Shown: positions 1 through 21,623, numbered from the stretch's first letter. The stretch: DNA of 64,000 bases from Calditrichia bacterium (GCA_965227145.1 OZ245730.1:2916646-2980645); one strand, 5' to 3'. A program made the numbers and translations. The notes: a model not told the origin generated them from the letters alone.

Positions 1-188
1 ACGCACGTTTTGTCTGCGGTGGTTGTTAGTGTGCAAATCGTTTTGTGCTGTTCTAACTGGCGGTTGTACCGGACGAAACCGCAGGGCTGGCAGTTTCTTT
101 CTAAAAAATATTCTGTGCAAATAAGTTTAATAAAATCAGCCGGTTGTGTGCAAGTGTTTCGCCGGTAAACCTTTTTGTTAGAAAAAAT

Positions 189-479
189 ATGAAGTTAAAA
201 GATCAATTATTGTTTCACCTTAAAAATCATATGCACAAACTAATTGATGATAACGATTTTGGTTTATTAGAGGATACAGCAAATTTATCGAACGCTTTGC
301 AAACTGGTAAATTGGAACAATTGCCATACGATGAACAAATATTTTGGCTTAATAAAGTTGATGGAATATATCGCTATTTTATTAGGGATGGAAATCCAAA
401 TTACTGTAACAACTCCGATATAAAAAAAATATTAGAAATTATTGGTTCAGAATTAAAATCTTTAAAAAAGAAGTTATAA
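189..479 (+). CDS. Cassette-borne hypothetical protein (96 aa)
   Basis: ATG 5 nt after R' of the first attC. The listed ORF extension back to 144 lies inside the attC. A near-identical truncated copy is at 29714. Confidence 0.75.
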   Translation: MKLKDQLLFHLKNHMHKLIDDNDFGLLEDTANLSNALQTGKLEQLPYDEQIFWLNKVDGIYRYFIRDGNPNYCNNSDIKKILEIIGSELKSLKKKL

Positions 480-778
480 CTAAACTTCAAGCCAAATAGA
501 AAGCCAATTTGAGGGATAAATATTTAAGAGTCGGTTTTCGTAAGTGAAAGGTTTTCAGTAGTTTATATTTTTGGTTGTTTGCAAGTTTGTAAGTTTTGTG
601 TGTTTTTTCTCTGTATTTTTTTCGTGGTAAAATTCAGTTTTTGCGGTTCTAACTTTCGGTTGTACCGGACGCAACCGCAGGGCTGTGCTTTCGTTCTAAA
701 TTTTAGTTTGTGCAAATGGGTTGTAAAACATCAGCAAATTCGGTGCAAGTGTTGCGCCGGTAAACCGTGTTGTTAGAT

Positions 779-1017
779 TCGGTTTTGTGTTTTCAGAAAA
801 GAAAAACTCCAAAAAATGGAGCAATTGCCAACGCCAAAATAATATTTAAAAAGATGTCCGTAAACGAAAGTGAAAGCTGATTTGACGAATAATATTTAAG
901 AGTCGGCTTTTCGTAAGTGAAAGGTTTTCAGTAGTTTATATTTTTGGTTGTTTGTAATTCAGTAAGTTTTGTGTGTTTTAGCGGCGTATTTTTTCGTGGT
1001 AAATTTAAGTGTTGCGG
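779..1017 (+). repeat. ORF-less cassette family A (11 copies, ~240 bp body)
   Basis: Bodies at 779-1017, 1851-2089, 3364-3603, 3736-3975, 4108-4348, 6582-6820, 9732-9971, 11817-12057, 12565-12806, 13932-14173, 14306-14545. Shared 5' half up to TATTTAAGAGTC, then the tail TTTTCGTAAGTGAAAGGTTTTCAG...TTCGTGGTAAA...TTGCGG. No conserved ORF. Confidence 0.88.
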
Positions 1018-1150
1018 TTCTAACTTTCGGTTGTACCGGACGCAACCGCAGGGCTGTGCTTTTGTTCTAAATTTTAGTTTGTGCAAAATGGGTTGTAAAA
1101 TATTAGCAAATTCGGTGCATGTGTTGCGCCGGTAAACCGTGTTGTTAGAT

Positions 1151-1394
1151 TCAGTTTTGTATTTTTCAAAAAAGAAAAGACTCCAGAAAACGGAGCAATT
1201 GCAAACGCAGAAATAATTTTTAAAGGACGTCCGCAAACCAAAGAGTAAGCCAATTTGCGGGATAAATATTTAAGAGTCCGCGCTTCAAAGAGTGTGGTTT
1301 TGGCAGGTTTTATTTTTACTTTTTTGATTTCTGTCAGTGTTTTGATCAGTCAAAATTTTTTTATTTTTCAGTGCAATGCAATTTAGTGTTGTGG
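1151..1394 (+). repeat. ORF-less cassette family B (2 copies)
   Basis: Bodies at 1151-1394 and 19632-19877. Same 5' half as A, different tail (GTGTGGTTTTGGCAGG...CTGTCAGTGTTTTG). Confidence 0.85.
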
Positions 1395-1526
1395 TTCTAA
1401 CTGTCGGTTGTACCGGACGCAACCGCAGGGCTGTGCTATCTTTCTAAATTTTAGTTTGTGCAAAATGGTTGTAAAATATTAGCAAATTCGGTGCAAGTGT
1501 TGCGCCGGTAAACCGTGTTGTTAGAT

Positions 1527-1718
1527 GGCAAAACGAAAAAGACGAAGAACATTTTGGGCTGTTGAGAAAACATAAACTCTTATCTGTTTTGGTTTACCAT
1601 TTAGTGGTGAACGTTCGTTTTTTGGTGCCAGTTTCTACATGTCGTTTGTTTGCGTCGTTGGTTGCCAACGCATATTTTTTCTGCGGTGGTTGTTTGTGCG
1701 CAAGTACGTTTTGTGCTG
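1527..1718 (+). repeat. ORF-less cassette family D (8 complete copies + 1 partial, ~190-203 bp body)
   Basis: Bodies at 1-50 (partial), 1527-1718, 7552-7742, 12939-13132, 13264-13466, 13599-13798, 14678-14870, 17230-17429, 20009-20209. Conserved hairpins GTTTACCA-N5-TGGTRAA and CGTTGG-NTG-CCAACG. Not alignable by eye to the A/B/C 5' half. Confidence 0.88.
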
Positions 1719-2220
1719 CTCTAACTGGCGGTTGTACCGGACGAAACCGCAGGGCTTGCGGTTTCTTTCTAAAAAATATTTGTGCAAATAAGTTGTATAA
1801 AATCAGCTAATTATGTGCCGGTGTTTCGCCGGTAAACCTTTTTGTTAGATTCAGTTTTGTATTTTCAGAAAAGAAAAACTCCAAAAAATGGAGCAATTGC
1901 CAACGCAAAAATAATATTTTAAAGATGTCCGCAAACCAAAGCGAAAGCTAATTTGATGAATAATATTTAAGAGTCGATTTTTCGTAAGTGAAAGGTTTTC
2001 AGTAGTTTATATTTTTGGTTGTTTGTAAATCTGTAAGTTTTGTGTGTTTTTCGCGGTGTATTTTTTCGTGGTAAAATTTAGTGTTGCGGTTCTAACTTTC
2101 GGTTGTACCGGACGCAACCGCAGGGCTGTGCTTTTGTTCTAAATTTAAGTTTGTGCAAACAGTTGTAAAATATCAGCAAATTCGGTGCATGTGTTGCGCC
2201 GGTAAACCGTGTTGTTAGAT

Positions 2221-2465
2221 TCAGTTTTGTATTTTTACAAAAAAGAAAAGACTCCGAAAAATGGAGCAAAAGCCAACGCAAAGTAAATATTTTAAAGACG
2301 TCCTCTTTTCGTAAGTGAAAGCCAGTTTGCGGGATAAATATTTAAGAGTCGGTTTAATTTAGTGCTGGGTTTTTGCAAGTTTATATTTTGGTTTTGTGGT
2401 CAACTGCGGGCTTCTGTAAAAATGTAAGTCAGTTGGCGGAGCTTTGTAAAAACAAAGTGTTGCGT
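2221..2465 (+). repeat. ORF-less cassette family C (4 copies)
   Basis: Bodies at 2221-2465, 6205-6449, 12189-12433, 19254-19499. Same 5' half as A, tail with CAACTGCGGGCTTCTGTAAAAATGTAAGTCAGTTGGCGGAGC. Confidence 0.87.
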
Positions 2466-2609
2466 TTCTAACTTTCGGTTGTACCGGACGCAACCGCAGG
2501 GCTGTGCTTTTGTTCTAAAAAATATTTGTGCAAATGGGTTGTAAAAATTCAGCAAATTGTGGCGTAGTGTTGCGCCGGTAAACCTTTTTGTTAGCCTAAA
2601 GGAGAATCG

Positions 2610-3218
2610 ATGCCAAGGTTTTCAATCTTCAGTGATGAAAAAAGACTTGAACAATCGATAAAAGATGTTCATTCAAAACTCAAAGATGGTTGTGACACTA
2701 AAGCGATACCAGAATCATTGGCAGATATTTACCAGGAAAAAGAGATTGAAAAATTGTTGCAAATAATAAAAAGCATAAATAATGAAAATCCAAATTCCTT
2801 AAAAAAAGCTATCTTTAAATCTGCTGCTTTTACCGCATTGCTGATAAATTTCTTAACTGTATATTTACTTTTTTATGATGGAATAAATCAAGATTGGAAT
2901 CAATCAATTCGGTTATTTTTATTGTTGTCAAGTAACATTATTGTAATAATTGGCATACTAAATAGATATACTTTTTTATATATTTTTGCAATCGCTTGTG
3001 GCATTTTAATGTTGTATCCTGAGGCTCAATTCAGACTTCTAACAAAATATTTATCAACAACATTGTCTATTTATATTATCGCGGTAACTGTTGTAATAGC
3101 ACTTGTGTTAATATTTTTTAGCTGGATTTTAAAACGTTCTAGCTCAATAGAATTGTATTCGGTAAGTAAAATTCTAAAACAAAATAGTTTAGACTTTGAA
3201 GAATTTTTAACAAAGTAA
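2610..3218 (+). CDS. Cassette-borne membrane protein (~4 TM helices)
   Basis: AAGGAG RBS before the ATG; four hydrophobic segments; fills the cassette between attC sites. Confidence 0.8.
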   Translation: MPRFSIFSDEKRLEQSIKDVHSKLKDGCDTKAIPESLADIYQEKEIEKLLQIIKSINNENPNSLKKAIFKSAAFTALLINFLTVYLLFYDGINQDWNQSIRLFLLLSSNIIVIIGILNRYTFLYIFAIACGILMLYPEAQFRLLTKYLSTTLSIYIIAVTVVIALVLIFFSWILKRSSSIELYSVSKILKQNSLDFEEFLTK

Positions 3219-4499
3219 GGTTAATATTTTTGGCTAACTGTCGGTTGTACCGGACGCAACAGCAGGGCTGTGCTTTTGTTCTAAATTTTAAGTTGTGCAA
3301 ATGGGTTGTAAAACATCTGCAAATTTGGTGCAAGTATTGCGCCGGTAAACCGTGTTGTTAGATTTAGTTTTGTGTTTTCAGAAAAGAAAAAACTCCAAAA
3401 AATGGAGCAATTGCCAACGCTGAAATAATATTTTAAAAGATGTCCGCAAACGAAAGTGAAAGCTGATTTGACGAATAATATTTAAGAGTCGGTTTTTCGT
3501 AAGTGAGAGGTTTTCAGTAGTTTATATTTTTGGTTGTTTGCAGTTTCGTAAGTTTTGTGTGTTTTTCGCTGTATTTTTTTCGTGGTAAATTTTAGTGTTG
3601 CGGTTCTAACTTTCGGTTGTACCGGACGCAACCGCAGGGCTGTGCTTTCGTTCTAAATTTTAGTTTGTGCAAATAAGTTTAATAAAATCAGCAAATTGTG
3701 GCGTAGTGTTGCGCCGGTAAACCGTGTTGTTAGATTCAGTTTTGTGAGTTTTTAAAAGAAAAGGCTCCAAAAAATGGAGCAATTGCCAACACAAAAATAA
3801 TATTTTAAAGATGTCCGCAAACCAAATCGAAAGCTAATTTGATGAATAATATTTAAGAGTCGGTTTTACGTAAGTGAAAGGTTTTCAGCAGTTTAATTTT
3901 TGATTGTTTGTAAATCTGTAAGTTTTGTGGGTTTTTCGCGGCGTATTTTTTCGTGGTAAAATTCAGTTTTTGCGGTTCTAACTTTCGGTTGTACCGGACG
4001 AAACCGCAGGGCTGGCAGTTTCTTTCTAAAAAATATCTGTGCAAATAAGTCAAATAAAATCAGCCGGTTGTGTGCAAGTGTTTCGCCGGTAAACCTTTTT
4101 GTTAGATTCAGTTTTGTATTTTCAGAAAAGAAAAACTCCAAAAAATGGAGCAATTGCCAACGCAGAAATAATATTTTAAAAGACGTCCGCTTTCCGTAAG
4201 TGAAAGCCAATTTGATGAATAATATTTAAGAGTCGGTTTTTCGTAAGTGAAAGGTTTTCAGTAGTTTATATTTTTGGTTGTTTGTAAAACCTTAAGTTTT
4301 GTGTGTTTTTCGCAGTTTATTTTTTCGTGGTAAAATTCAGTGTTGCGGTTCTAACTTTCGGTTGTACCGGACGCAACCGCAGGGCTGTGCTTTCGTTCTA
4401 ATAAATATTTTGTGCAAATAAGTAAAATAAAATCAACCGGTTGTGTGCAAGTGTTTCGCCGGTAAACCTTTTTGTTAGGACTAAAAAACTTGTAAAAAA

Positions 4500-4883
4500 A
4501 TGACAGAAATTATCTCAGAGTTAGAAAAAGAATATTACAAATACGGTAAAATCATAGAAGCTCCGAAAAAATTTTTACAATTTCATACGATACCGCAACA
4601 TGATGGAAGAGCACATATAGAATATGAAGGCAGCGACTTAATTTATGTGATTACTGAAAGAGGAATTAGATTTAATGAAAAAAGGACTACAAACCCGGAT
4701 GAATTATTATTCTGGTTAATAAGTGATCTAACATTTGAGATAGCAAACGAACTCAGTATAAATGAATGTAAAACAAATGAAGAATATAGAAAAAAACTAT
4801 TTTTAAGGCAGGAAGCACTAATAGGTCGCATAAACCAAGAATGGGAAAAACAATTAAAAAAATATCATGATAAACTATTGTAA
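4500..4883 (+). CDS. Imm63-family immunity protein (cassette-borne)
   Basis: Motifs DGRAHIE, YVITERG, DELLFWL, F.RQE.L...I...W resemble polymorphic-toxin immunity family Imm63. Confidence 0.7.
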   Translation: MTEIISELEKEYYKYGKIIEAPKKFLQFHTIPQHDGRAHIEYEGSDLIYVITERGIRFNEKRTTNPDELLFWLISDLTFEIANELSINECKTNEEYRKKLFLRQEALIGRINQEWEKQLKKYHDKLL

Positions 4884-5061
4884 ATCTTTGTATTACCTGC
4901 AACTGTCGTCCTAACTTCCGGTTGTACCGGACGCAACCGCAGGGCTGTGTTTTTGTTCTAAATTTTAGTTTGTGCAAAAGGGTTGTAAAATATCAGCAAA
5001 TTCGGTGCAAGTGTTGCGCCGGTAAACCGTGTTGTTAGACTTTATTAATAAATATTTTAAA

Positions 5062-5817
5062 ATGACAGATGCTCAGATAAAATATGGTACATGGAACATC
5101 AAGAAAGGATTTGTCCCTCCAAAGGACTCCGTGACCTTGTTTGACGAATACAGACCTTCTGACAAGCTCAGCTTGGTCGTCACACAAACGAATTTAACCT
5201 CATATCAACAACAAAAAAATATAGATGAGTGGTGTGACAAACTACCTGCATTGAGTGAAGTAAAGTTCCTTTGGATGCCTTCTAAAGTGAATCAGAAAAT
5301 TTTTGACGCAGTTTGTAAAATGTCAAACATTGAAGGTTTGTGGATAAAATGGAGTGGAATCAAAAAATTAGATCAATTAGCCCAACTTAAAAATCTAAAG
5401 TATTTTAAGCTTGGAAGTTCGTCACAAGTTGAAAGCATAGAAGCCCTTGAAAGCTTGACAAATCTTGAAACTTTGGAATTAGAGCAATTAAATAAAATAA
5501 CAAACTTCAATGTAATCGGGAGCTTAACTCAATTGCAAGGGCTAGGTCTTGATGGTAGTTTGTGGACAGCTCAAAAAATTGATTCTTTGGAACCAGTCAG
5601 CTATTTAGAGAAATTGAAATATTTAACTACAACCAATTCTCAAATCAAAGACAAATCATTTGACCCATTATTAGGATTGACTGAATTAGTGCGGTTTAAT
5701 TGTTCATGGAACTATCCTGAGTCAGAATTTGAAAAATTGAATTCATTGCCTAATCTAAAGTACGGGAATATTGAGACTTCCTGGAAAGAATTGAAAGCCA
5801 AAATGAGAATAGAATAA
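5062..5817 (+). CDS. Leucine-rich repeat protein (cassette-borne)
   Basis: Repeated LxxLxxLxxLxL units (LAQLKNLKYFKL, LESLTNLETLEL, IGSLTQLQGLGL). Start taken at the first ATG after the attC. Confidence 0.85.
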   Translation: MTDAQIKYGTWNIKKGFVPPKDSVTLFDEYRPSDKLSLVVTQTNLTSYQQQKNIDEWCDKLPALSEVKFLWMPSKVNQKIFDAVCKMSNIEGLWIKWSGIKKLDQLAQLKNLKYFKLGSSSQVESIEALESLTNLETLELEQLNKITNFNVIGSLTQLQGLGLDGSLWTAQKIDSLEPVSYLEKLKYLTTTNSQIKDKSFDPLLGLTELVRFNCSWNYPESEFEKLNSLPNLKYGNIETSWKELKAKMRIE

Positions 5818-6971
5818 AAAGTGTACCAAAAGAACAATAAGCAATAGCTTCCTTCGGGATGCTAATGCTCTCAGCCAAAAGAATTTTAACAAAACCAATA
5901 TTAAAAAAATTCCTTTTTTTAAATTGGTGATAAAGCAGATTTTGACAGTGATTCTTATCCGTAATTGTGGTTTATAACCACTGTAGTAAAATCGGGTCTT
6001 CTGTTATCTGTCAGTGTTTTTTGGTCATTCAACGTGTTGTAAATTGGTCTTGTGCAAACCGTAGCTCTGCTCGTCTAACTATCGGTTGTACCGGACGCAA
6101 CCGCAGGGCTGTGCTTTTGTTCTAAGTTTTAGTTTGTGCAAATGGGTTGTAAAATATCAGCAAATTGTGGCGTAGTATTGCGCCGGTAAACCGTGTTGTT
6201 AGATTTCGATTTTGTATTTTTTCAAAAAAGAAAGACTCCAAAAAATGGAGCAAAAGCCAACGCAAAGTAAATATTTTAAAGACGCCCTCTTTTCGTAAGT
6301 GAAAGCCAGTTTGCGGGATAAATATTTAAGAGTCGGTTTAATTTAGTGCTGGGTTTTTGCAAGTTTATATTTTGGTTTTGTGGTCAACTGCGGGCTTCTG
6401 TAAAAATGTAAGTCAGTTGGCGGAGCTTTGAAAAAACAACGTGTTGCGGTTCTAACTTTCGGTTGTACCGGACGCAACCGCAGGGCTGTGCTTTTGTTCT
6501 AAATTTTAGTTTGTGCAAATGGGTTGTAAAATATCAGCAAATTCGGTGCAAGTGTTGCGCCGGTAAACCTTTTTGTTAGATTCAGTTTTGTATTTTCAGA
6601 AAAGAAAAACTCCAAAAAATGGAGCAATTACCAACGCAAAGTAAATATTTTAAAGACGTCCGCTTTTCGTAAGTGAAAGCCAGTTTGCGGGATAAATATT
6701 TAAGAGTCGGTTTTCGTAAGTGAAAGGTTTTCAGTAGTTTATATTTTTGAGTGTTTGTAAATCTGTAAGTTTTGTGTGTTTTTCGCAGTTTGTGTTTCGT
6801 GGTAAAATTCAGTGTTGCGGTTCTAACTTTCGGTTGTACCGGACGCAACCGCAGGGCTGTGCTTTTGTTCTAAATTTTAGTTTGTGCAAATGGGTTGTAA
6901 AATATCAGCAAATTTCGGCGTAGTGTTGCGCCGGTAAACCGTGTTGTTAGAGCATCAGGGATAATAGAAGA

Positions 6972-7412
6972 ATGAATAAATGCTTGTATATGATGTTGAA
7001 GTTGATTCTGCTTATTCTATTTTTAATTCTTCCAACCAATATTTTTTCAAATAACGAAAAAAGTGAAAATTTTGATTATTTCATTATTGATTTTTTTGCA
7101 AATCAAGAATTCCAAAAAAGTAGAACGCTTTTTCCATTGGAGTATACTTATTATGATCCTGGGCTTGAAGTAGATAACGATATAATTACAGTATATTTAT
7201 CCGAGTCTGATTGGAAACCGATGACGGATACAAGCTATATTCAAAGTGAGTATTTCCATAGGATATATGACAATTTCGATGCAAAACTACGCGATACCGG
7301 AAAACGTGTATTTGCATACGAAGGGAGTGAGACTTGTCTCAAAATTTATCTATATTTTGAGCTTAGGGAAGAAAAGTGGTTCTTAATAAAAAAAGAGGAT
7401 TTCAGTTCGTAA
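6972..7412 (+). CDS. Secreted protein, DUF4348-like (cassette-borne)
   Basis: Signal peptide; ENFDYFI..F...EFQKSR..FPL motif and C-terminal YFE....KWFL. Confidence 0.6.
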   Translation: MNKCLYMMLKLILLILFLILPTNIFSNNEKSENFDYFIIDFFANQEFQKSRTLFPLEYTYYDPGLEVDNDIITVYLSESDWKPMTDTSYIQSEYFHRIYDNFDAKLRDTGKRVFAYEGSETCLKIYLYFELREEKWFLIKKEDFSS

Positions 7413-8287
7413 TCGGTTCCTCTAACTTTCGGTTGTACCGGACGCAACCGCAGGGCTGTGCTTTCGTTCTAAATTTTAGGTTGTGCAAATGGGTTGTAAA
7501 ATATCAGCTAATTCGGTGCAAGTGTTGCGCCGGTAAACCGTGTTGTTAGAATGCAAATTAAAAAAGACGAAAAACATTTTGGGTTGTTGGAAAAACATAA
7601 ACTATTATTTGTTTTGGTTTACCAGTTTGTGGTAAACGTTCGTTTTTTGGTACCAGTTTCTACATGACGTGTTTTTGCGTCGTTGGTTGCCAACTCGCGT
7701 TTTGTCTGCGGTGGTTGTTTGTGTGCAATTTATTGTGTGCTTTTCTAACTGGCGGTTGTACCGGACGCAACCGCAGGGCTGGCAGTTTCTTTCTAAATTT
7801 TACTTTGTGCAAATAAGTTGTATAAAATCAGCTAATTATGTGCCGGTGTTTCGCCGGTAAACCTTTTTGTTAGATTTTTAAAATCAAAGTTTATGAAGAA
7901 TATTATAATCATTATTCTATTTCTTGTACAATCAACGATAGCTCAATCATCCAAAGTTGAATATTGGGAGCACTTTTCCGAAAATGATAAACTAGAAATT
8001 CTTAAAGATTCTAGAGTAACAGAGACAATGAAAGCAATTTATAATAGTGTATCACCTGAAGAAATTGATTTTGAAGGGATAGAAACATTATTAGATACGA
8101 TATGTATATTTAATAACAAATTACAACCACTCTATTTCTTTTTATTTAACAACCTAATAATAATCGCGGACGGGTATCTTGCAGAATCAATGGGATATTA
8201 TTCATATAAAATTATAAATCAGGATGCTATTTATGTATTGAAATATCTACAGGAAAAGCCGGAAATCAGGGCTAAATACATAAGTTA

Positions 8288-9393
8288 TACTCACACTAAA
8301 TTGGTTTGGGAAAATCCCATCAATTGAATATCTTTATCCATGCTAGAATTAGATGACAACACCCGGCGCGAATTAAAGCTTTTGCAGAAGCGTCCGTCCA
8401 ACAAACGCATTTATATCAAAGTCACTGTATTGTTGATGCTGGACAAAGGTCTTTCTGTCCAGGTGATTGCCGATTTTTTAGGCATTGATGACAACACCGT
8501 CTACCGCTATCGTGACAGCTATCTCACCAACGGACTGAAAGATTATCTGGCATCCAATTATTTTCGATACAATGGCAAACTCACTGATGAAGAAAAAGCC
8601 CGGCTCGTTGCAGAACTGACTGAATACCTGTATCCAAGCAGCGCTGCTGTTGGTGAATTTATCGCGGCGACCTTCAACAAGCACTATTGTGAAAGTGCTG
8701 TTTCCACACTGCTGAACCGTTTGGGCTTTGTTTACAAAAAGACCAAATCCGTTCCTTCAAAAGCGGATTCGGCTGCCCAAAGACGGTTTGTTAAAAAGCT
8801 ACACAGATTGTTGAAAAAACAGGATGTTAATGCTATTTTCTATTTCAACGACGCAGCGCATCCCCAACACAATACCCGTCCGGCATATGGCTGGATACCA
8901 AAGGGTGAGGATGTTGGTATTCCCTCAAATACCGGTCGTAAACGCCTGAATATTAATGCTGCCATCAACGCCGAAGATGTTGGCGACATTGTTTTTCGTG
9001 AAGATGAACAGATCAATTCCCAATCAACCATCGCCCTTTGGGAAGCCCAGCATGCGAAACATCCGGGTAAAAAGATCTATAACATCTGTGACAACGCCAG
9101 ATACTACAAAAGTCACCTCATTCAGGAATGGTTAAAGAAGAATAAATGGTGCAAAGTGATATATTTACCGGCATATTCGCCAAACCTGAACATTATCGAA
9201 CGATTATGGAAGTATTTACGAAAATCGGTCATCGATTATTTTTACTATGAAAAGTATAGTGATTTCAAGGTTGCAATATTGACATTTTTTGAAACGATTG
9301 AGCAGCATAGGCAACCCTTAACTTCTTTGCTTACGCTTAATTTTCACATCCCATAAAAATGGTTATTTGTCCCTAACCAATTTCTTTTGGGTA
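8288..9393 (+). mobile_element. IS630-family insertion sequence
   Basis: Imperfect terminal inverted repeats TACTCACACTAAATTGGTTTGGGA / revcomp TACCCAAAAGAAATTGGTTAGGGA; TA target duplication at 8286-8287 and 9394-9395. Confidence 0.93.
8340..9356 (+). CDS. IS630-family transposase
   Basis: N-terminal HTH; DDE motifs FNDAAHP, ICDNARYY, LPAYSPNLNIIERLW. Confidence 0.95.
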   Translation: MLELDDNTRRELKLLQKRPSNKRIYIKVTVLLMLDKGLSVQVIADFLGIDDNTVYRYRDSYLTNGLKDYLASNYFRYNGKLTDEEKARLVAELTEYLYPSSAAVGEFIAATFNKHYCESAVSTLLNRLGFVYKKTKSVPSKADSAAQRRFVKKLHRLLKKQDVNAIFYFNDAAHPQHNTRPAYGWIPKGEDVGIPSNTGRKRLNINAAINAEDVGDIVFREDEQINSQSTIALWEAQHAKHPGKKIYNICDNARYYKSHLIQEWLKKNKWCKVIYLPAYSPNLNIIERLWKYLRKSVIDYFYYEKYSDFKVAILTFFETIEQHRQPLTSLLTLNFHIP

Positions 9394-11104: not shown

Positions 11105-11539
11105 ATGAGTAAGAATGTTAAAACAATTGTTTTTACGGTAATCGGACTTTTAATCGGTTATGTGGGATCGCAATTTCTTATTGATACAATTTTCAAGAAA
11201 CCTAATATTGAGGAAATTCTTGTGCAAGCAGCGCAAGAGATGAATAAATCTTGCCCAATAATTTTAGACCAAGATACAAGACTCGATACTACATTGGGTG
11301 GACCTGGGAAAAACTTTTCATATTTTTATACATTAGTAAACTATTCAAAAGAAGAAATTAATCAGGATACATTGATATCCTATTTAAAACCAAACATTAT
11401 TAATAATGTAAAAACCCATCCTCAAATGGCAATATTTAGAGAGAATGATATTACAATGAATTATAATTATAAAGACAAAGATGGAGTTTTTTTATTTATT
11501 ATTTCAGTCACACCGGAGGAATATAAAAATCAATTGTGA
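11105..11539 (+). CDS. Cassette-borne membrane-anchored hypothetical protein
   Basis: AAGGAG RBS; N-terminal TM helix; NKSCP...DQDTRLD motif. Confidence 0.75.
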   Translation: MSKNVKTIVFTVIGLLIGYVGSQFLIDTIFKKPNIEEILVQAAQEMNKSCPIILDQDTRLDTTLGGPGKNFSYFYTLVNYSKEEINQDTLISYLKPNIINNVKTHPQMAIFRENDITMNYNYKDKDGVFLFIISVTPEEYKNQL

Positions 11540-14500
11540 TGCAATCCTTCAAGATATAATCTAAAGAGTCCGTTTTTCGTAAGTAAAAGGTTTTCAGTAG
11601 TTTATATTTTGGTTGTTTGCAAATCCGTAAGTTTCGTGTGTTTTTTTGCAACGTATTTTTTCGTGGTAAAAGTCGGTTTGTGCGGTTCTAACTGTCGGTT
11701 GTACCGGACGCAACCGCAGGGCTGTGCTTCTGTTCTAAAAAATATCTGTGCAAATCAGTTTAATAAAATCAGCAAATTATGGCGTAGTGTTGCGCCGGTA
11801 AACCGTTTTGTTAGATTAAAATTCCGTTAATTTCAAAAAGAAAAACTCCAAAAAATGGAGTAATTGCCAACGCAGAAATAATATTTTAAAAGACATCCGC
11901 GAACGAAAGTGAAAGCCAATTTGATGAATAATATTTAAGAGTCGGTTTTACGTAAGTGAAAGGTTTTCAGTAGTTTATATTTTTGGTTGTTTGTAAAACC
12001 TTAAGTTTTGTGTGTTTTTCGCAGTTTATTTTTTCGTGGTAAAATTCAGTGTTGCGGTTCTAACTTTCGGTTGTACCGGACGCAACCGCAGGGCTGTGCT
12101 TTCGTTCTAAAAAATAATTGTGCAAATAAGTTTAATAAAATTAGCAAATTCGGTGCAAGTGTTGCGCCGGTAAACCGTGTTGTTAGATTCAGTTTTGTAT
12201 TTTTACAAAAAAGAAAAGACTCCGAAAAATGGAGCAAAAGCCAACGCAAAGTAAATATTTTAAAAACGTCCTCTTTTCGTAAGTGAAAGCCAGTTTGCGG
12301 GATAAATATTTAAGAGTCGGTTTAATTTAGTGCTGGGTTTTTGCAAGTTTATATTTTGGTTTTGTGGTCAACTGCGGGCTTCTGTAAAAATGTAAGTCAG
12401 TTGGCGGAGCTTTGTAAAAACAAAGTGTTGCGTTTCTAACTTTCGGTTGTACCGGACGCAACCGCAGGGCTGTGCTTTTGTTCTAAAAAATATTTGTGCA
12501 AATGGGTTGTAAAAATTCAGCAAATTGTGGCGTAGTGTTGCGCCGGTAAACCTTTTTGTTAGATTGAAAATTCCGTTAATTTCGAAAAGAAAAACTCCCA
12601 AAAATGGAGTGATTGCCAACGCAAAGTTAATATTTTAAAGACGTCCGCTTTTCGTAAGTGAAAGCCTATTTGCGGGATAAATATTTAAGAGTCCGTTTTT
12701 CGTAAGTGAAAGGTTTTCAGTCGTTTATATTTTGTTTGTTTGCATTTTCGTAGGTTTTGTGTGTTTTTCGCGGCGTATTTTTTCGTGGTAATTTTTAGTG
12801 TTGCGGTTCTAACTTTCGGTTGTACCGGACGCAACCGCAGGGCTGTGCTTTCGTTCTAAATTTTAGTTTGTGCAAATGGGTTGTAAAATATCAGCAAATT
12901 CGGTGCATGTGTTGCGCCGGTAAACCGTGTTGTTAGAAAGCAAAATGAAAAAAACAAAAACCGTTTCTGATTTTTGGGAAAACATAAGTTTGTATCTGTT
13001 TTGGTTTACCAGATTGTGGTGAAAGTTCGTTCTTTTTGGTGGCAACTTCTACATGTCGTGTGTTTGCGTCGCTGGTTGCCAACGCGCGTTTTGTCTGCGG
13101 TGGTTTTGTCTGTGCAAGTTCGTTTTGTGCATTTCTAACTTTCGGTTGTACCGGACGCAACCGCAGGGCTGTGCTTTCGTTCTAAAAATTATCTGAGCAA
13201 ATAAGCTTAATAAAATCAGCAAATTCGGTGCAAGTGTTGCGCCGGTAAACCGTGTTGTTAGAAGGCAAATTGAAAAAGGCTAAAAAGTCAAAAACCGATT
13301 TTGGCTGTTGGGAAAACATAAGTTTATATCTGTTTTGGTTTACCAGATTTTGGTGAAAGTTCATTCTTTTTGGTGGTCTTTTCTACGGGTCGTGTGTTTG
13401 CATCGTTGGTTGCCAACGCGCGTTTTGTCTGCGGTGGTTGTTTGTGTGCAAGTTCGTTTTGTGCGGTTCTAACTTTCGGTTGTACCGGACGCAACCGCAG
13501 GGCTGTGCTTTTGTTCTAAATTTTAGTTTGTGCAAAATGGTTGTAAAATATCAGCAAATTGTGGCGTAGTGTTGCGCCGGTAAACCGTGTTGTTAGAAGG
13601 CAAATCGAAAAAGGCTAAAAAGACAAAAACCGATTTTGGTTGTTGGAAAAACATAAACTCTTATTTGTTTTGGTTTACCAGTTTGTGGTGAACGTTCGTT
13701 TTTTGGTGCCAGTTTCTACATGTCGTGTGTTTGCGTCGTTGGGTGCCAACGCACGTTTTGTCTGTGGTGGTTGTTTGTGTGCAAATTGGTTTGTGCTGTT
13801 CTAACTGGCGGTTGTACCGGACGAAACCGCAGGGCTGGCAGTTTCTTTCTAAATTTTAAATTGTGCAAATAAGTTTAATAAAATCAGCCGGTTGTGTGCA
13901 AGTGTTTCGCCGGTAAACCTTTTTGTTAGATTCGGTTTTGTATTTTTTCAAAAAAGAAAGACTCCAAAAAATGGAGCAAAAGCCAACGCAAAGTAAATAT
14001 TTTAAAGACGTCCGCTTTTCGTAAGTGAAAGCCAGTTTGCGGGATAAATATTTAAGAGTCCGTTTTTCGTAAGTGAAAGGTTTTCAACAGTTTAAATTTT
14101 TGGTTGTTTGTAAATCTGTAAGTTTTGTGTGTTTTTCGCTGTATTTTTTTCGTGGTAAAATTTAGTGTTGCGGTTCTAACTTTCGGTTGTACCGGACGCA
14201 ACCGCAGGGCTGTGCTTTTGTTCTAAGTTTTAGTTTGTGCAAATGAGTTGTAAAATATCAGCAAATTGTGGCGTAGTGTTGCGCCGGTAAACCGTGTTGT
14301 TAGATTCAGTTTTGTATTTTCAGAAAAGAAAAACTCCAAAAAATGGAGCAATTGCCAACGCAGAAATATTATTTTAAAGACGTCCGCTTTTCGAAAGTGA
14401 AAGCCAGTTTGCGGGATAAATATTTAAGAGTCGGTTTTCGTAAGTGAAAGGTTTTCAGTAGTTTATATTTTTGAGTGTTTGTAAATCTGTAAGTTTTGTG

Positions 14501-15035
14501 TGTTTTTCGCGGTGTATTTTTTCGTGGTAAAATTTAGTGTTGCGGTTCTAACTTTCGGTTGTACCGGACGCAACCGCAGGACTGTGCTTTTGTTCTAAAT
14601 TTTAATTTGTGCAAATTGGTTGTAAATCATCTGCAAATAGTGGCGTAGTGTTGCGCCGGTAAACCGTGTTGTTAGAATGCAAATTAAAAAAGACGAAAAA
14701 CAATTTTGGGCTGTTGGGAAAACATAAATTTGTATCTGTTTTGGTTTACCATTTTGTGGTGAACGTTCGTTTTTTGGTGCCAGTTTCTACATGTCGTGTT
14801 TTTGCGTCGTTGGTTGCCAACGCGTGTTTTGTCTGCGGTGGTTGTTTGTGTGCAAGTTCGCTTTGTGCTGTTCTAACTGGCGGTTGTACCGGACGAAACC
14901 GCAGGGCTGGCAGTTTCTTTCTAAGTTATAGTTTGTGCAAATAAGTTTAATAAAATCAGCCGGTTGTGTGCAAGTGTTTCGCCGGTAAACCTTTTTGTTA
15001 GCCGTTACTATTATCTTTAAATAATTTCTTATGAA

Positions 15036-15707
15036 ATGAAAACTTTACTTCTTATTTACATTTTAACGTTTACCTGTTATCCGCAAATATCAACTTCTGA
15101 AATTGTTGGTATTTATAGCCAAAATAGCGGATTTACTCAACAGATTCTTGAATTAAATTCAGATAATACTTTCCAATATAGATATTTTTTTGATGTGGGT
15201 GGATGGAGGTTACCTATTCACGGTAACTGGAAAATAAAGAGTGATACAATATTTTTATTTTCTTCACCATTACCTGAGATACAAGAGGTTAAAGAATCAG
15301 AAAGCAGCGACAGTGTAATAACAATAACTGTCTATAACAGAGAAAGAGAAGAGGCTTTTTTATATCCTCAAATAAAACTAAATGGTTGGCATCCAGATTA
15401 TGACCCATCAATTCATGTTATCTCAACGGATTCTGTAAAATTTGGGCCATTTCTTGTTAGTAAAAATGAGTATAATTCGCCTATAAATAACATCAAACTA
15501 TATATTGGTAATTTTGTATTGTCATATATACCAAGCGATAAAAATTCAGACACTTTTGAATTAATTCTAAATTTAACCGAAGACGAAATTTTCAATGAAA
15601 TTTTTTTTGATAATGAGCCATATCTTTATCTAAATAACATGCTTTATCAACGGTTTAATGGAGAGTTTGTGACAGAATATCCATTAATAAAAGTCAAAAA
15701 ACAGTAG
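15036..15707 (+). CDS. Cassette-borne secreted hypothetical protein
   Basis: Signal peptide; beta-rich (LELNSDNTFQY, GNWKIKSDTIFL). Confidence 0.75.
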   Translation: MKTLLLIYILTFTCYPQISTSEIVGIYSQNSGFTQQILELNSDNTFQYRYFFDVGGWRLPIHGNWKIKSDTIFLFSSPLPEIQEVKESESSDSVITITVYNREREEAFLYPQIKLNGWHPDYDPSIHVISTDSVKFGPFLVSKNEYNSPINNIKLYIGNFVLSYIPSDKNSDTFELILNLTEDEIFNEIFFDNEPYLYLNNMLYQRFNGEFVTEYPLIKVKKQ

Positions 15708-15871
15708 TTGAAGTTTATTAAATATTATCAAAAACTCGGCTAACTTTCGGTTGTACCGGACGAAACCGCAGGGCTGGCAGTTTCTTTCTAAAAAATATTT
15801 GTGCAAATAAGTTTAATAAAATCAGCCGGTTGTGTGCATGTGTTTCGCCGGTAAACCTTTTTGTTAGAAAT

Positions 15872-16252
15872 ATGATTGTTGAATACAAAAACGGCCTAAA
15901 ATTTGAATTGTTTGACGATTTTGCAATAATTTATTTCCCAGAAGAATACTGGGTTGGTAGTTGGGGTTCAATGCTGGATTTGGTTAGACATAAGATAATA
16001 AGCCATGTTAAATATATTTTAATTGATTATTCAAATGTAAAGTTTATTGGTGATGGTAGCTTTGAGTCTGCAATTCTGAGAGAAGAATTCCAACAATTAG
16101 GCGGATCAGATGTTATTCATATATCCGTTCCTGAATGTATTAAAAATCTTTGGAAATTGGCAGATCCTAAAAATGAAGTAAAACCTTTTCCCGAATTTAT
16201 GAGTAAAGAAAACGCACTAAAATACATAACACTTAACCACAGAAAAAATTGA
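15872..16252 (+). CDS. Cassette-borne hypothetical protein, weakly STAS-like
   Basis: ATG 2 nt after the R' heptamer; ILIDYSNVKFI..S and a terminal 'ENAL' resemble anti-sigma-factor antagonist (STAS) domains. Confidence 0.6.
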   Translation: MIVEYKNGLKFELFDDFAIIYFPEEYWVGSWGSMLDLVRHKIISHVKYILIDYSNVKFIGDGSFESAILREEFQQLGGSDVIHISVPECIKNLWKLADPKNEVKPFPEFMSKENALKYITLNHRKN

Positions 16253-16476
16253 GATTACCTGAATAAAGTTAATTGATGCTTTTTAATGGTATAGTTTTTC
16301 CCAAAAAGCAAAATATTATTAAACTATTTCTAACTTTCGGTTGTACCGGACGAAACCGCAGGGCTGTGCTTTCGTTCTAAAAAATATTTGTGCAAATAAG
16401 TTTAATAAAATCAGCAGATTATGGCGTAGTGTTTCGCCGGTAAACCTTGTTGTTAGATTCGGGCAAAATTAAACAT

Positions 16477-16980
16477 ATGGAAATAAAGGTCAAAAAACCG
16501 ATAATGTTTTTATCAATATTCGTCATTGTCGTAGCTGTTGATGCAGCTTTTAGTGGAATAACTTTGGGTAGAGATTTGATACTCAGTTGGATAATAATCC
16601 TAGGAATTCCTCTTGAATTGGTTGCTATTCTGTTTCTTATGCCAACGCTTCGCTTGTATTTCTCTGAAAAAGGCTTAAGGAGATATTGGAAAATTGGGAT
16701 AGGTAAGTATATTCTTTGGGAGGATAACCGGTTCTCACTTCAATGGAACAATGTATCAAAAGTGTTTTCAGCTTTTCCACTTTGGGTCCCTTTAAGAATG
16801 ATCGGAATTGGAGGACGAACAAATCGTCGTTATTTAGTATTTTATGTTGGCTTTGTTACAACCCAAACAAAGGAATCGATATTGTACATAGCAACTCACG
16901 TGAAAAAAGAAGTGATAAGCAACGACGTTAAGAAACTAGTCAAAAAGTATAACCAAAAAAGAGACACTCTCAAAATGTAA
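16477..16980 (+). CDS. Cassette-borne membrane protein
   Basis: Two N-terminal TM segments; first ATG after the attC. Confidence 0.7.
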   Translation: MEIKVKKPIMFLSIFVIVVAVDAAFSGITLGRDLILSWIIILGIPLELVAILFLMPTLRLYFSEKGLRRYWKIGIGKYILWEDNRFSLQWNNVSKVFSAFPLWVPLRMIGIGGRTNRRYLVFYVGFVTTQTKESILYIATHVKKEVISNDVKKLVKKYNQKRDTLKM

Positions 16981-17586
16981 GTTTTGGCAAAGTTTATAAT
17001 TCGGTCTTTGTCAATTCTGCGCTGCGGGTTAAAAGTAAGTCAGGTGGCGGAGCTTTGTAAAAATTTAGTGTTGCGTTTCTAACTTCCGGTTGTACCGGAC
17101 GCAACCGCAGGGCTGTGCTTTCGTTCTAAATTTTATTTTGTGCAATTGGTTGTAAAATATCAGCAAATTCGGTGCATGTGTTGCGCCGGTCTCGAAGGGA
17201 TGCCTTCGGCATAAACCGTGTTGTTAGAAGGCAAATCGAAAAAGGCTAAAAAGACAAAAACCGTTTTGGGCTGTTGGAAAAACATAAACTCTTATCTGTT
17301 TTGGTTTACCATTTTGTGGTGAACATTCGTTTTTTGGTGCCAGTTTCTACATGTCGTGTTTTTGCGTCGTTGGTTGCCAACGCATATTTTTCTGCGGTAG
17401 TTGTTTCTGTGCAAATCGGTTTTGTGCAGTTCTAACTTTCGGTTGTACCGGACGCAACCACAGGGCTGTGCTTTTGTTCTAAAAAATAATTGTGCAAATA
17501 AGTTTAATAAAATCAGAAAATTGTGGCGTAGTGTTGCGCCGGTAAACCGTGTTGTTAGCGACAAGAAATGTGAAGTGGACTTTAAT

Positions 17587-18516
17587 ATGGGAATTCATAA
17601 CAATTGTATTTCAACTAAGAATTGTTTCAAGTATTGCAGGTTATTCAGTAAGCTTTTGTGTTGGTTCAGTTTTGGCATTTTTATATTAACAACTATGAAT
17701 AGTTACGCTCAAACGGACAATAATGGGAATCCAATATTTAATTCAATTTCGATAAATGAGCAACAATTTACCGAGTATAATCTAATATCAAACTATTACA
17801 CACTAATAAACAATATCGAGAATAAAAACTCGTCGGTTTATGTTTCAGATACACCAACGCTAAATGAAATTGAAACTTCAGCTATTAAACTTCCATCAGA
17901 TTTCTTTATTATTGCTAAGCTACAAAATGTATCTCACTTAATAATGTTGGTTAGTTCCCCTGAAAAGAAATTTCGAGTTATTAATATTGCAACAGAGAAT
18001 GAATTAGAGTTTGATTGTGATCTGAATGGTGATATCACAGAAAATCGGGCAAATGAAATAATCCAAGAAAAATTTGATCCAAAAGCAAAAATTGAAAGTG
18101 GAATTCTCCATTTTAATGGCAAAAAACTTAAGATTATACCCAATGAGTCAATTAACAATGCAGTTCTTTCATTGATTATGAAAGAAAAATTTTATGAATC
18201 ACAACCTTCTGAATTCAAAATTCCAACGAAAGACGAGCTAAAAGAAATTATTTTAAAAGAATCTACGGAAGGTGGTAAATTTGATTTTTTTTCTGAAATC
18301 AAAGAAAAAGAATATAACGGTGTTCAGATAAAACCCGGAGTATTTACAACATTAGAGTCGATAGCATTATACAAATGGGGACGTGCAAATTATGATTTAG
18401 GAATTAATACCATTGAAGACGCCTATGCTATATATGCTGAATTTCGAAATCGTGAGATTACAGATAAGGAAAAAGCTTATATCAAAAAAGGATTTGAAAA
18501 AGAATGGGAAAAATAA
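17587..18516 (+). CDS. Cassette-borne secreted hypothetical protein (start uncertain)
   Basis: Long ORF filling the cassette; hydrophobic stretch followed by SYA-QTD cleavage-like site. The listed extension to 17401 runs through an attC. Confidence 0.75.
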   Translation: MGIHNNCISTKNCFKYCRLFSKLLCWFSFGIFILTTMNSYAQTDNNGNPIFNSISINEQQFTEYNLISNYYTLINNIENKNSSVYVSDTPTLNEIETSAIKLPSDFFIIAKLQNVSHLIMLVSSPEKKFRVINIATENELEFDCDLNGDITENRANEIIQEKFDPKAKIESGILHFNGKKLKIIPNESINNAVLSLIMKEKFYESQPSEFKIPTKDELKEIILKESTEGGKFDFFSEIKEKEYNGVQIKPGVFTTLESIALYKWGRANYDLGINTIEDAYAIYAEFRNREITDKEKAYIKKGFEKEWEK

Positions 18517-18726
18517 ATTTTTCATGGTCGTTATATTCCTAACAATTTGCCTGATGGTCGCTAACTTCCGGTTGTACCGGACGCAACCGCAGGGCTGTGC
18601 TTTTGTTCTAAATTTTAGTTTGTGCAAATGGGTTGTAAAATATCAGCAAATTGTGGCGTAGTGTTGCGCCGGTAAACCGTGTTGTTAGATGGGTTCAATA
18701 TAAAACATTCAAAGTGAACACTAAAT

Positions 18727-19137
18727 ATGCTTTTATTTAAAATAATAATTTTAATATTAATATTATGTACATTCTTTTTTGGACAAGAAATTAATCAAAA
18801 CTTTCTAAATACAATTTGGATATGTGAAGTCACAAGCGAAGCCAATGATTCATTGTATCTCAATCTTGACTTGTCATTTATTAACTATAATTGTGAAATA
18901 GATGAGCACACCTATGGAACATTTAATATTTATAAAGACACTTTATATTTGTCTCAGGAATTTGGAGAGTTTGATTCTACATTTAAAGAAGGATCTATAC
19001 ATAGAAGAGGAAAAGCAATATATAAATATTTAATTTTAGACCAAGATAATATTAAACTAGTTTGTTACAAGGAAAATAATGCATTGCAAGGAATTTTAGA
19101 ATTTGATTGTGAAAATATTTTAAAAAAGGTAAAGTAA
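18727..19137 (+). CDS. Cassette-borne secreted hypothetical protein
   Basis: Signal peptide; beta-rich body. Confidence 0.7.
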   Translation: MLLFKIIILILILCTFFFGQEINQNFLNTIWICEVTSEANDSLYLNLDLSFINYNCEIDEHTYGTFNIYKDTLYLSQEFGEFDSTFKEGSIHRRGKAIYKYLILDQDNIKLVCYKENNALQGILEFDCENILKKVK

Positions 19138-19148
19138 ATAAATCACTT

Positions 19149-19253
19149 TTTTAACCCGTACTGTACGCGACACTTGCGTCGCGCGATGAATTTCGTGAAA
19201 GTCCTGGGCAACCGCCCTATTCCGGTGCGCATGTAAGTACTAAATCGTTAGAT
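19149..19253 (+). other. Foreign-type attC site
   Basis: TTTTAAC...GTACTGTACGCGACAC / GTGCGCATGTAAGTAC...GTTAGAT imperfect inverted repeat at the exact position an attC is expected, unrelated in sequence to the resident family. Confidence 0.7.
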
Positions 19254-20430
19254 TTAGTTTTGTATTTTTCAGAAAAAAAAAAAGACTCCGGAAAACGGAG
19301 CAATAGCCTACACAAAATTGATATTTAAAAGGAGCCCGTATTCGAAAGTGAAAGCCAAGTTGCAGGATTTGTTTTTAAGAGTCGGTTTACTTTAGTGCCA
19401 GTTTTTCGCAAGTTTATAATTTGGGTTTTGTATTCAACTGCGGGCTTCTGTAAAAATGTAAGTCAGTTGGCGGAGCTTTGAAAAAACAAAGTGTTGCGGT
19501 TCTAACTTTCGGTTGTACCGGACGCAACCGCAGGGCTGGCAATTTCTTTCTAAGTTTTAGTCTGTGCAAACAGTTGTAGAATATCAGCAAATTTGGTGCA
19601 AGTGTTGCGCCGGTAAACCGTGTTGTTAGATTCAGTTTTCCATTTTTTCAAAAAAGAAAAGGCTCCAAAAATGGAGTAATTGCCAACGCAAAGTTAATAT
19701 TTTAAAGACGTCCGCTTTCCATAAGTGAAAGCCAATTTTCAGGATAAATATTTAAGAGTCCGCGATTCAAAAAGTGTGGTTTTGGCAGGTTTTATTTTTA
19801 CTTTTTCTGTTTTCTGTCAGTGTTTTGGTCAGTCATAATTTTTTATTTTTCTGTGCAGTGCAAATCAGTTTTTGCGGTTCTAACTTTCGGTTGTACCGGA
19901 CGCAACCGCAGGGCTGTGCTTTCGTTCTAAGTTTAGTTTGTGCAAAATGGTTGTAAAACATCAGCAAATTTAGTGCATGTGTTGCGCCGGTAAACCGTGT
20001 TGTTAGAATGCAAATCGAAAAAGGCTAAAAAGACAAAAACCGATTTTGGCTGTTGGAAAAACATAAACTCTTATCTGTTTTGGTTTACCATTTTGTTGTA
20101 AATGTTCATTTTTTGGTGCCAGTTTCTACATGTCGTGTTTTTGCGTCGTTGGCTGCCAACGCGTGTTTTGTCTGCGGTGGTTGTTTGTGTGCAAGTTCGT
20201 TTTGTGCGGTTCTAACTTTCGGTTGTACCGGACGCAACCGCAGGGCTGTGCTTTCGTTCTAAATTTTAGTTTGTGCAAATGGGTTGTAAAACATCAGCAA
20301 ATTGTGGCGTAGTGTTGCGCCGGTCCCGATGGGATGCCTTCGGCATAAACCTTGTTGTTTTGCAAGCTGTACTTGAGTCAGTCACTAAAATATTACTTTA
20401 TTTATCTACGTTTAAATGGTTTTTCAATAC

Positions 20431-21429: not shown

Positions 21430-21442
21430 CCTCCAATTGCTG

Positions 21443-21484: not shown

Positions 21485-21623
21485 GAATTAAAATAACCCA
21501 ATTGTTATTTTTTGCTTGTTACTAAGAACGATATGTCATCGTCAAGGTTGCTTTTTATCAATGGCAGTACTGCACATTTGAAAAGTAATCTCATTTATTC
21601 ACTATTTTACTTAGGAGCAAGCT

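Follow-up and report, generated by a model that had tools for sequence, protein, structure and literature searches.

Two superfamilies of gene-less cassettes make up most of a ~137 kb sedentary chromosomal integron in a Calditrichia bacterium

The closest described counterparts of the cassettes reported here are the non-coding cassettes of Vibrio integrons. In Boucher 2006 (PMC1382264), where a cassette is called non-coding when it has no open reading frame (ORF) >150 bp and no BLASTX match, such cassettes account for 6–49% of Vibrio arrays and are presented as lineage-restricted and conserved between species; in V. vulnificus CMCP6, 107 of the 219 cassettes are non-coding and one paralogous family has 45 members. 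Selfish as well as promoter or RNA roles were proposed for them in that paper, and its Table 1 gives the large Vibrio arrays as 125–151 kb in length with 173–219 cassettes. Blanco 2024 (PMC11014356), in which gene-less cassettes are those with ORFs <70 aa, reports that, of 29 gene-less Vibrio cassettes, most were active as promoters in the sense direction, an activity that was not predictable in silico, and promoter-bearing gene-less or ORF-less cassettes are also reported in Tansirichaiya 2019 (PMC6557892). A Xanthomonas cassette with a small RNA (sRNA), sRNA-Xcc1, is described in PMC12444791 as also carrying symE and as having a low copy number. Here, we analysed a 64,000-nt stretch from a Calditrichia bacterium (GCA_965227145.1 OZ245730.1; positions 2916646–2980645 of a single-contig 6.28 Mb genome without N; hereafter, “the window”), and found that window positions 1–20354 constitute the distal fifth of a sedentary chromosomal integron (~137 kb) in which most cassettes carry no gene. 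A preliminary description of the window had put forward these repeated cassettes as the best candidate in the window for an undescribed system and had taken gene-less cassettes to be normally a minority. The second statement fits poorly with the V. vulnificus CMCP6 count (107/219), and the first with the fact that paralogous non-coding cassette families, and the same explanations for them, are already found in Boucher 2006 (PMC1382264).

The preliminary description had proposed a search for the integrase gene, and a complete one was located. A genome profile search gave one full match to an integron integrase (IntI; TIGR02249, 471.9 bits against a cut-off of 265, model positions 1–313 of 315). 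This intI gene, a 322-aa ORF in a frame that is open for 334 aa without stops, sits on the minus strand, 117.5 kb before the left edge of the window, divergent from the attC array, and its nearest IntI in the genome collection is only 65% identical. An attC model built from 22 window copies was run with nhmmer on the whole 6.28 Mb genome and recovered 239 sites, all on the plus strand, at genome positions 2800340–2937004, the first 1.2 kb from intI and the last at window position 20359. Three further, degenerate sites occur at window positions ~26059, 28177, and 29556, and there was no other match to this model in the genome. The criterion for an attC was the presence of RYYYAAC and GTTRRRY inverted cores flanking an imperfect palindrome whose bottom strand folds. 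CTAAC and GTTAG cores were both present in 234 of the 242 matches, the length was 127–129 nt in 229 of the 239 measured sites (nearly uniform at ~128 nt), and the bottom strand, folded as DNA, gave one long imperfect hairpin whose stem was also recovered in consensus folds. The repeated ~130-nt units are thus attC sites, with inverted cores, uniform length, and a bottom-strand hairpin. One example is as follows:

3604–3729, plus strand: attC site from CTAAC core to GTTAG core; the bottom strand folds into a long imperfect hairpin.

With 239 co-oriented attC sites beside intI, the array exceeds the threshold for a “sedentary” integron, which is given as more than about 10–19 attC sites in IntegronFinder 2.0, where complete integrons are also listed for the Bacteroidetes/Chlorobi group. 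The whole array spans genome positions 2800098–2937004 and has a G+C content of 34–39%, against 47.8% for the genome. A GTTAGA junction immediately before the first cassette is the putative attI, and the first cassette is itself a gene-less unit (B-type, see below). Between intI and the attI junction, there are a 121-aa ORF without a Pfam family and a long run of tandem 7-nt repeats (positions 2550–2706 in the coordinates of the intI locus), with a few copies of a different 7-nt unit ahead of it.

When cassettes were cut at G|TTAG, 37 were obtained in window 178–20354, one of which (18685–19625) consists of two cassettes divided by a foreign attC ending at 19247. Complete cassettes in the window therefore number 38, of which 13 are genic and 25 gene-less (11 A, 4 B, 2 C, and 8 D). 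These totals agree with the preliminary description, which had counted families of 11, 2, 4, and 8 with the B and C labels swapped relative to ours. Over the whole array, cutting gave 238 cassettes in addition to the attI-proximal one, and five apparent “gene plus whole gene-less unit” cassettes are two cassettes each, split by a foreign attC that the attC model had missed. In total, the gene-less cassettes number at least 147 among at least 244 (60%); all these totals are lower bounds, as further foreign attC sites may hide in long cassettes. All-against-all BLAST clustering of the bodies produced 68 groups, of which two were huge: a long group (n = 85) and group D (n = 56), which rise to at least 88 and at least 59 copies after the attC splits and the inclusion of the first cassette. 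Families of 85 and 56 members are far beyond chance. The long superfamily (typically ~247 bp) has a common ~110-nt 5′ module joined to one of several 3′ modules, A (57 copies), B (16), or C (4), or carries an insertion (8 copies), and its bodies measure 244–312 nt when these last eight are included; the D superfamily has bodies of ~200 bp (196–209 nt). The mean pairwise identity among copies is 85–88%. The tight body lengths and the reading of these cassettes as true attC-bounded, diverged units without a conserved ORF, both in the preliminary description, held up; its lengths were ~5 nt shorter than ours (long, 244–253 nt; D, 196–209 nt) owing to the choice of boundary. The gene-less cassettes of the window are as follows:

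1–177, plus strand: end of a D-type gene-less cassette (cassette 201) and its attC.
773–1144, 1845–2214, 3358–3729, 3730–4101, 4102–4474, and 6576–6946, plus strand: A-type long gene-less cassettes, 1–6 of 11; each A cassette is a ~246-nt body followed by a ~126-nt attC.
9726–10097, 11811–12182, 12559–12932, 13926–14299, and 14300–14671, plus strand: A-type long gene-less cassettes, 7–11 of 11.
2215–2590, 6199–6575, 12183–12558, and 19248–19625, plus strand: the four B-type long gene-less cassettes, with the 5′ module of A and C and their own 3′ module.
1145–1520 and 19626–20002, plus strand: the two C-type long gene-less cassettes; a homologue of the second lies at the equivalent distal place in the array of a sister species.
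1521–1844, 7546–7869, 12933–13257, 13258–13592, 13593–13925, 14672–14997, 17224–17554, and 20003–20354, plus strand: the eight D-type short gene-less cassettes.

The array is similar in size (~137 kb, at least 244 cassettes) to a superintegron of the Vibrio cholerae type and has uniform attC sites like one; the host, however, is not a Vibrio. An RpoB of 1258 aa, the TAnnTTTG −7 box of its tRNA promoters, and one SusD-like match would place it in the Bacteroidota/Chlorobi/Ignavibacteria group. The families resemble the Vibrio non-coding families, as these are characterized in Boucher 2006, in being attC-bounded, ORF-less, similar over their full length, highly paralogous within one array, lineage-confined, and conserved between species. 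They differ in the host group, in their share of the array (60% versus 49%), and in forming two superfamilies with modular 5′ and 3′ halves. The likeness to the Vibrio families is one of description; in sequence, they had no match in the plasmids, in the metagenome pattern scan, or, the sister species aside, in 85 genomes of the class.

The gene-less families are non-coding. Body lengths take every value from 244 to 253 nt in the long superfamily and from 196 to 209 nt in D, so that the copies are mutually out of frame, and no ORF is common to the copies of either family. In D, an ATG frame runs for 37–68 codons depending on the copy, and in the alignment about a quarter of the 36 distinct copies have 1-nt indels inside it; the most variable D columns fall on first and second codon positions. 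Variable columns show no periodicity of three bases. C-type copies also differ by 1-nt indels. Ten chance ORFs of gene-less cassettes gave no Pfam match above the cut-off. Individual copies hold chance frames of >50 aa, up to 105 aa, which, taken copy by copy, exceed the strict length limits used for non-coding cassettes.

Comparison of near-identical copies indicated how these units move. Among the 54 gene-less pairs with at least 98.5% identity over their full length, both neighbours were different in 33, and only 2 lay in a duplicated block in which both neighbours were shared; near-identical gene-cassette pairs had different neighbours on both sides in 20 of 33 cases. Judged from these arrangements, the gene-less units are genuine cassettes that move singly. 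Furthermore, all 24 cassettes in the attI-proximal tenth of the array (17 of 17 gene-less and 7 of 7 genic) have a twin of at least 99.5% identity elsewhere in the array, and the share of cassettes with such a twin is 67, 42, 29, 38, 25, 29, 33, 17, and 26% in the next nine tenths. Cassette insertion at attI is established integron biology, and a twin gradient starting from attI is the footprint expected of cassettes that are copied out and re-inserted there, suggesting a duplication step. The order of the cassettes is near random, with no enriched transition among long, D, and gene cassettes (long followed by gene, 28 versus 34.8 expected), and no positional logic placing a gene-less unit before or after genes was seen across the array. 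In anatomy and dynamics, these are gene-less, individually mobile cassettes duplicated by the integron.

One module of the gene-less cassettes could be compared between species. In the sister species (G001; same genus, flanks 92–93% identical), the homologue of the C unit at 19626–20002 departs from the window copy at ~20 places in the first ~116 nt but by a single indel in the final ~140 nt of the body; the attC loop also differs. As a neutral yardstick, identity at 739 four-fold degenerate sites in six syntenic flanking genes is 79.6%. The C-type 3′ module beside attC is thus, by this comparison, far more conserved than neutral DNA, which points to purifying selection; the sole alternative that we see is a conversion or transfer tract limited to the 3′ module, which may have produced the same pattern. 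The 5′ half of the C unit looks like the result of a swap between paralogues, and a stretch of the G001 5′ module, inspected by eye in the alignment, nearly matches other copies from the same array in the window genome. Within the array, per-column diversity in the bodies (0.11–0.14) is no higher than in the attC sites (0.09–0.15), and body diversity is clustered in conserved and variable blocks (p < 0.0005, column permutation), to which mosaic recombination may contribute. The earlier proposal of a maintained functional class is borne out to the extent that one module is conserved far above neutral expectation; its suggestion that the class consists of structured RNAs found no support, as described below.

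Both the sense and the antisense strand in the gene-less cassettes carry signals that could act on transcription. A consensus scan of window 1–20000 returned 34 terminator-like sites, against 16.2 ± 3.9 in shuffles, most of them in gene-less cassettes. The recurrent elements are as follows:

3392–3408, minus strand: terminator-like hairpin followed by a T run in the long-family 5′ module, present in 16 of 17 long cassettes within 1–20000.
13673–13693 and 13737–13751, plus strand: two hairpins of the D body, both with a T-rich run behind the stem, each present in 5 of 7 D cassettes within 1–20000.
3525–3532, plus strand: −7 box match (TAnnTTTG), ~165 nt into A and B cassettes, conserved, with no good −35 upstream.

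The terminator-like hairpins are weak (5–9 pairs, 3–4 of them G-C), and the T runs of D begin 3–5 nt from the stem; the D hairpins themselves are kept, with 92.3% of cells paired. The host promoter type was derived from 21 tRNA promoters (21 of the 45 tRNA genes had a recognizable one) and, for strong promoters, reads TTGACA, 17 nt, TAnnTTTG, and then a G+C-rich stretch, a combination of the classical −35 with a −7 box of Bacteroidetes type. Among A cassettes, 48 of 57 have an exact sense-strand −7 box at one conserved place, as do 15 of 16 B cassettes; in C and D, there is no such box at a conserved place. With the host promoter matrix, none of 141 gene-less cassettes reached 10 bits on either strand (maximum, 9.0), and the 21 training promoters scored 10.3–27.1 in leave-one-out controls. 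This negative is weak because Blanco et al. report that such promoters are not predictable in silico. On the minus strand, 131 of 238 attC sites, genic and gene-less alike, contain an E. coli-type TTTACA-16/18-TAAAAT arrangement (e.g., 700–727), which we set aside because it mismatches the host TTGACA-17-TAnnTTTG. In composition, the sense strand is poor in C and rich in G and T in each of the four families: the sense C/G ratio is 0.54–0.66, compared with 0.82 in gene cassettes, and the antisense ratio is 1.52–1.85. Any relation of this strand asymmetry to Rho is speculative. The long and D families also have a 10-mer in common, for which we estimate ~0.05 occurrences by chance.

RNA structure was examined in parallel. 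Rfam 15 gave no match at E ≤ 1 in window 1–24000 on either strand. The A, C, and D bodies fold no better than their dinucleotide shuffles on either strand (z-scores: A+, −0.07; A−, +0.33; C+, +0.50; C−, −0.63; D+, −1.71; D−, +0.66), and consensus folds on both strands recovered only the attC stem and three short hairpins. Among the 36 distinct D copies, there were no compensatory base changes in 17 and in 13 tested pairs, a result equal to that of the shuffle controls. Structured RNA, which the preliminary description had offered for these families, is unsupported, with an empty Rfam search, shuffle-like folds, and no covariation in the D copies; of the covariation and coding potential that it had proposed to look for, neither was found. 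A further idea, pairing of the module preceding attC with the cassette start in the excised circle, was dropped because no such pairing was seen by inspection.

As the best single explanation, at somewhat less than an even chance, we propose that the gene-less units are self-copying non-coding cassettes, selfish or commensal at the cassette level, with a cis constraint beside attC. A cassette would be excised at its attC and a copy returned at attI; re-insertion would duplicate cassettes and stack recent copies at the integrase end; short, harmless cassettes would accumulate until the two non-coding superfamilies made up ~60% of the array; and purifying selection would hold at least the 3′ module beside attC, most likely in cis on DNA or transcription. 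This explanation is favoured because copying is visible, placement is random, no product acting in trans is supported, and genic cassettes are copied alike. We infer both that proliferation rather than host benefit lies behind the abundance and what the nature of the constraint is. Several points weigh against it. Among the newest insertions, the gene-less share (17 of 24) is only a little above that of the whole array (59%), so that no special drive is shown; gene-less and genic cassettes also have the same attC types, which gives no sign of an advantage in recombination. Copying extends to gene cassettes, yet only two superfamilies have expanded. Mobility and copying are read from the sequence, and the conservation test consists of one orthologous pair, in which a gene-conversion tract or a module-limited transfer is possible. 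The conservation of the C 3′ module, the tight lengths, and the strand asymmetry across unrelated families fit a host-level function equally well or better.

A host-level function of this kind, which we consider possible but less probable, is the punctuation of transcription, in which D would stop sense transcription, the 5′ hairpin of the long units would stop antisense transcription, and the −7 box of A and B would restart sense transcription, so that the 137 kb array would be cut into units; C-poor untranslated sense RNA would escape Rho, and C-rich antisense RNA would attract it. The doubling of terminator-like sites over shuffles (34 versus 16.2 ± 3.9), with 16 of 17 long cassettes on the minus strand and 5 of 7 D cassettes on the plus strand, agrees with this, as do the retention of the D hairpins, the D sense RNA being the sole fold with a negative trend (z, −1.71), the host-type −7 box at a fixed sense place in most A and B copies, the C/G ratios of the two strands, and the constrained 3′ module. 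Gene-less units in long arrays beyond the reach of one Pc, some with a sense host-type −7 box (A and B), also recall the promoter cassettes of Blanco 2024 and Tansirichaiya 2019, and most gene-less Vibrio cassettes tested in the former (PMC11014356) had sense promoter activity; the present units differ from these in that the host matrix does not support a full promoter (0 of 141 at 10 bits), no −35 is present, and C and D have no box at a fixed position. The hairpins are moreover short, the T runs of D stand off the stem, covariation is absent, genes are not preferentially located after long or before D cassettes, and the Rho argument is drawn from composition alone. A more committed version appears doubtful to us. 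In it, the gene-less units would be a dedicated mobile cis-regulatory class that is shuffled by the integron along with its genes: D would end sense transcription, long units would end antisense transcription and allow a restart in the sense direction, and the 3′ module, under strong purifying selection, would act together with attC as a transcription signal or as a recombination enhancer that lengthens the functional end of the cassette. If it were true, most of the cargo of the integron would be regulatory DNA rather than genes. Selfish parasites and promoter or spacer units had both been named in the preliminary description, and both survive as live readings in the fuller forms given here, the former tentatively preferred and the latter less probable.

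The remaining explanations find less in their favour. Small non-coding RNA genes acting in trans or as cis-antisense, like sRNA-Xcc1, would share with that cassette a non-coding function carried by a cassette; one module is conserved between species, the minus-strand hairpin and T run could end a minus-strand RNA, and metatranscriptome contigs cover parts of gene-less cassettes. We regard this as improbable: relative to sRNA-Xcc1, as it is described in PMC12444791, nothing here points to a discrete RNA, to structure, or to a promoter (Rfam empty at E ≤ 1, folds equal to shuffles, 0 compensatory pairs, and no host-type promoter on either strand), the RNA-library contigs are of low depth, unstranded, and possibly DNA carry-over, and ~147 copies of one sRNA gene would be unusual. 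The units could also be leftovers or raw material of cassette formation, if the attC-side module were a standard 3′ end that is joined to genes and the gene-less cassettes were empty or gutted. A-, B-, C-, and D-type 3′ modules do occur in unrelated gene cassettes, placed after the stop codon and before attC (178–772 and 11077–11810 terminate in a partial A-type 3′ module), partial family matches are present in cassettes 50/129/186, 99, 202, and 221, and more such tails were seen by eye. Yet the five “gene plus whole blank” cases resolved into two cassettes each, no gene remnant was seen in the bodies, and deletions fusing a gene cassette to the next gene-less one explain the tails equally well and are expected when 60% of neighbours are gene-less; we know of no mechanism for joining 3′ modules to genes during cassette formation, and consider this origin unlikely. 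Small peptides, such as hydrophobic type I toxin-like ones, are suggested by the T-rich sense strands, which open frames of 40–90 codons rich in Phe, Leu, Val, and Cys (for example, the ATG frame of D and a GTG frame at 19774–19956). The varying frame length (37–68 codons in D), the indels in D and C copies, the location of the most variable D columns on first and second codon positions, and the lack of a Pfam match make such peptides very unlikely. Finally, highly repeated units of 320–380 nt are hard to assemble, and an assembly artefact or plain tandem amplification might be suspected; it is hardly credible here, given one 6.28 Mb contig without N, diverged copies (85–88% mean identity) interspersed with 68 kinds of attC-bounded cassette body, contigs from independent public runs that match pieces at ≥99%, and a sister species that shares a family.

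We also examined the distribution of the two families outside the array. Neither was found elsewhere in the window genome or in 80 IntI loci from other phyla; a plasmid collection gave no match for one A and one D cassette; and a metagenome pattern scan returned 7 stretches, none with an attC or family match. No copy of the D body turned up in the 40 relatives searched. For the A body, a search of 85 other genomes of the class yielded G001 alone, besides one 27-nt match at E = 5.6e−4. Many of the searched genomes are fragmented and their repeats possibly unassembled, so that the families were “not found” there rather than shown absent. The search of related genomes proposed in the preliminary description thus succeeded for one of them: G001 has one whole C unit and one decayed A tail, and none of the others searched had either. 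In public sequencing runs, 20 rows in 9 studies contain part of window 1–10000, and contigs from soil, activated sludge, and marine sediment runs match pieces of the array (window 1–20000) at ≥99%; four of the public runs gave short contigs only, in which uncovered parts and depth are uninformative. One metatranscriptome library gave low-depth, unstranded contigs over both genic and gene-less cassettes (the latter at 13422–13555, 14275–14383, and 17221–17357), possibly through DNA carry-over, so that they are no demonstration of transcription. Contig joints between distant cassettes were considered as evidence of rearrangement and rejected, because the sides are short and may be repeats or mosaic copies.

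The gene cassettes of the window carry mostly orphan genes. They are located as follows:

178–772, 2591–3357, 4475–5034 (Imm63), 5035–6198 (leucine-rich repeat), 6947–7545 (DUF4348), 7870–9725 (DDE_3 transposase), and 10098–11076, plus strand: gene cassettes 1–7 of 13.
11077–11810, 14998–15863, 15864–16452, 16453–17223, 17555–18684, and 18685–19247, plus strand: gene cassettes 8–13 of 13.
19150–19247, plus strand: foreign (non-family) attC that closes gene cassette 18685–19247, missed by the attC model.

The ORF at 4500–4883 encodes Imm63, an immunity protein of polymorphic toxin systems, and that at 5029–5817 a leucine-rich-repeat protein. The transposase cassette at 7870–9725 contains a DDE_3/HTH ORF (8340–9356), that is, an insertion sequence inside a cassette, and cassette 71, further up the array, has the same body length (1730 nt) and the same start and end sequences. 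Foreign attC types also close genome cassettes 40, 64, 78, and 177; cassettes with a foreign attC are a minority and were probably acquired from other integrons.

The preliminary description had set the array at 1–20363. An integron array does occupy this region, and its fossil end lies near 29945, not at 20363, as the degenerate attC sites and synteny with G001 indicate. The features beyond the last family cassette are as follows:

20363–28175: block between the last family cassette and the fossil cassettes, encoding two AraC-type regulators, an NmrA-like protein, two SDR proteins, a muconolactone isomerase, a SpoIIE-type phosphatase, and an InsA-like ORF.
28177–29945, plus strand: fossil distal array end, with degenerate attC sites at 28177–28299 and 29556–29709 and a truncated paralogue of cassette 178–772.

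The block at 20363–28175 contains the degenerate attC at 26059–26152 and has no counterpart at the corresponding place in G001; the conserved chromosome resumes near 29942, according to synteny with G001. The attC sites at 20203–20359, 28177–28299, and 29556–29709 have an extra GC-rich insert before the last core. In G001, intI lies at a contig end and most of the array is unassembled; the distal array end is present and syntenic with window 28175–45046, and a C-type unit stands directly before the shared fossil cassette. The visible G001 cassettes have mixed attC types. Three isolated attC-like sites of the same attC family also occur on the main G001 contig (~2347061–2363901), far from the G001 intI, and may be an attC cluster without an integrase.

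Gene-less cassettes of this kind are already known, and our limited literature search found no such families described outside Vibrio. What is new is the lineage, the presence of two unrelated modular families, their 60% share of the array, the twin gradient from attI, and the quantified constraint beside attC. In the twin gradient, a natural array shows a clean imprint, at the genomic level, of cassettes being duplicated and re-inserted at attI, and, with ~137 kb and at least 244 cassettes, this array is as large as the big Vibrio superintegrons. What part gene-less cassettes play has been an open question since the Vibrio counts of 2006, and promoter assays have covered no more than a few dozen individual cassettes. 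The Calditrichia array provides a second, independent natural system outside Vibrio, in which, with two large modular families, one constrained module, and a visibly active integron, this question is testable.

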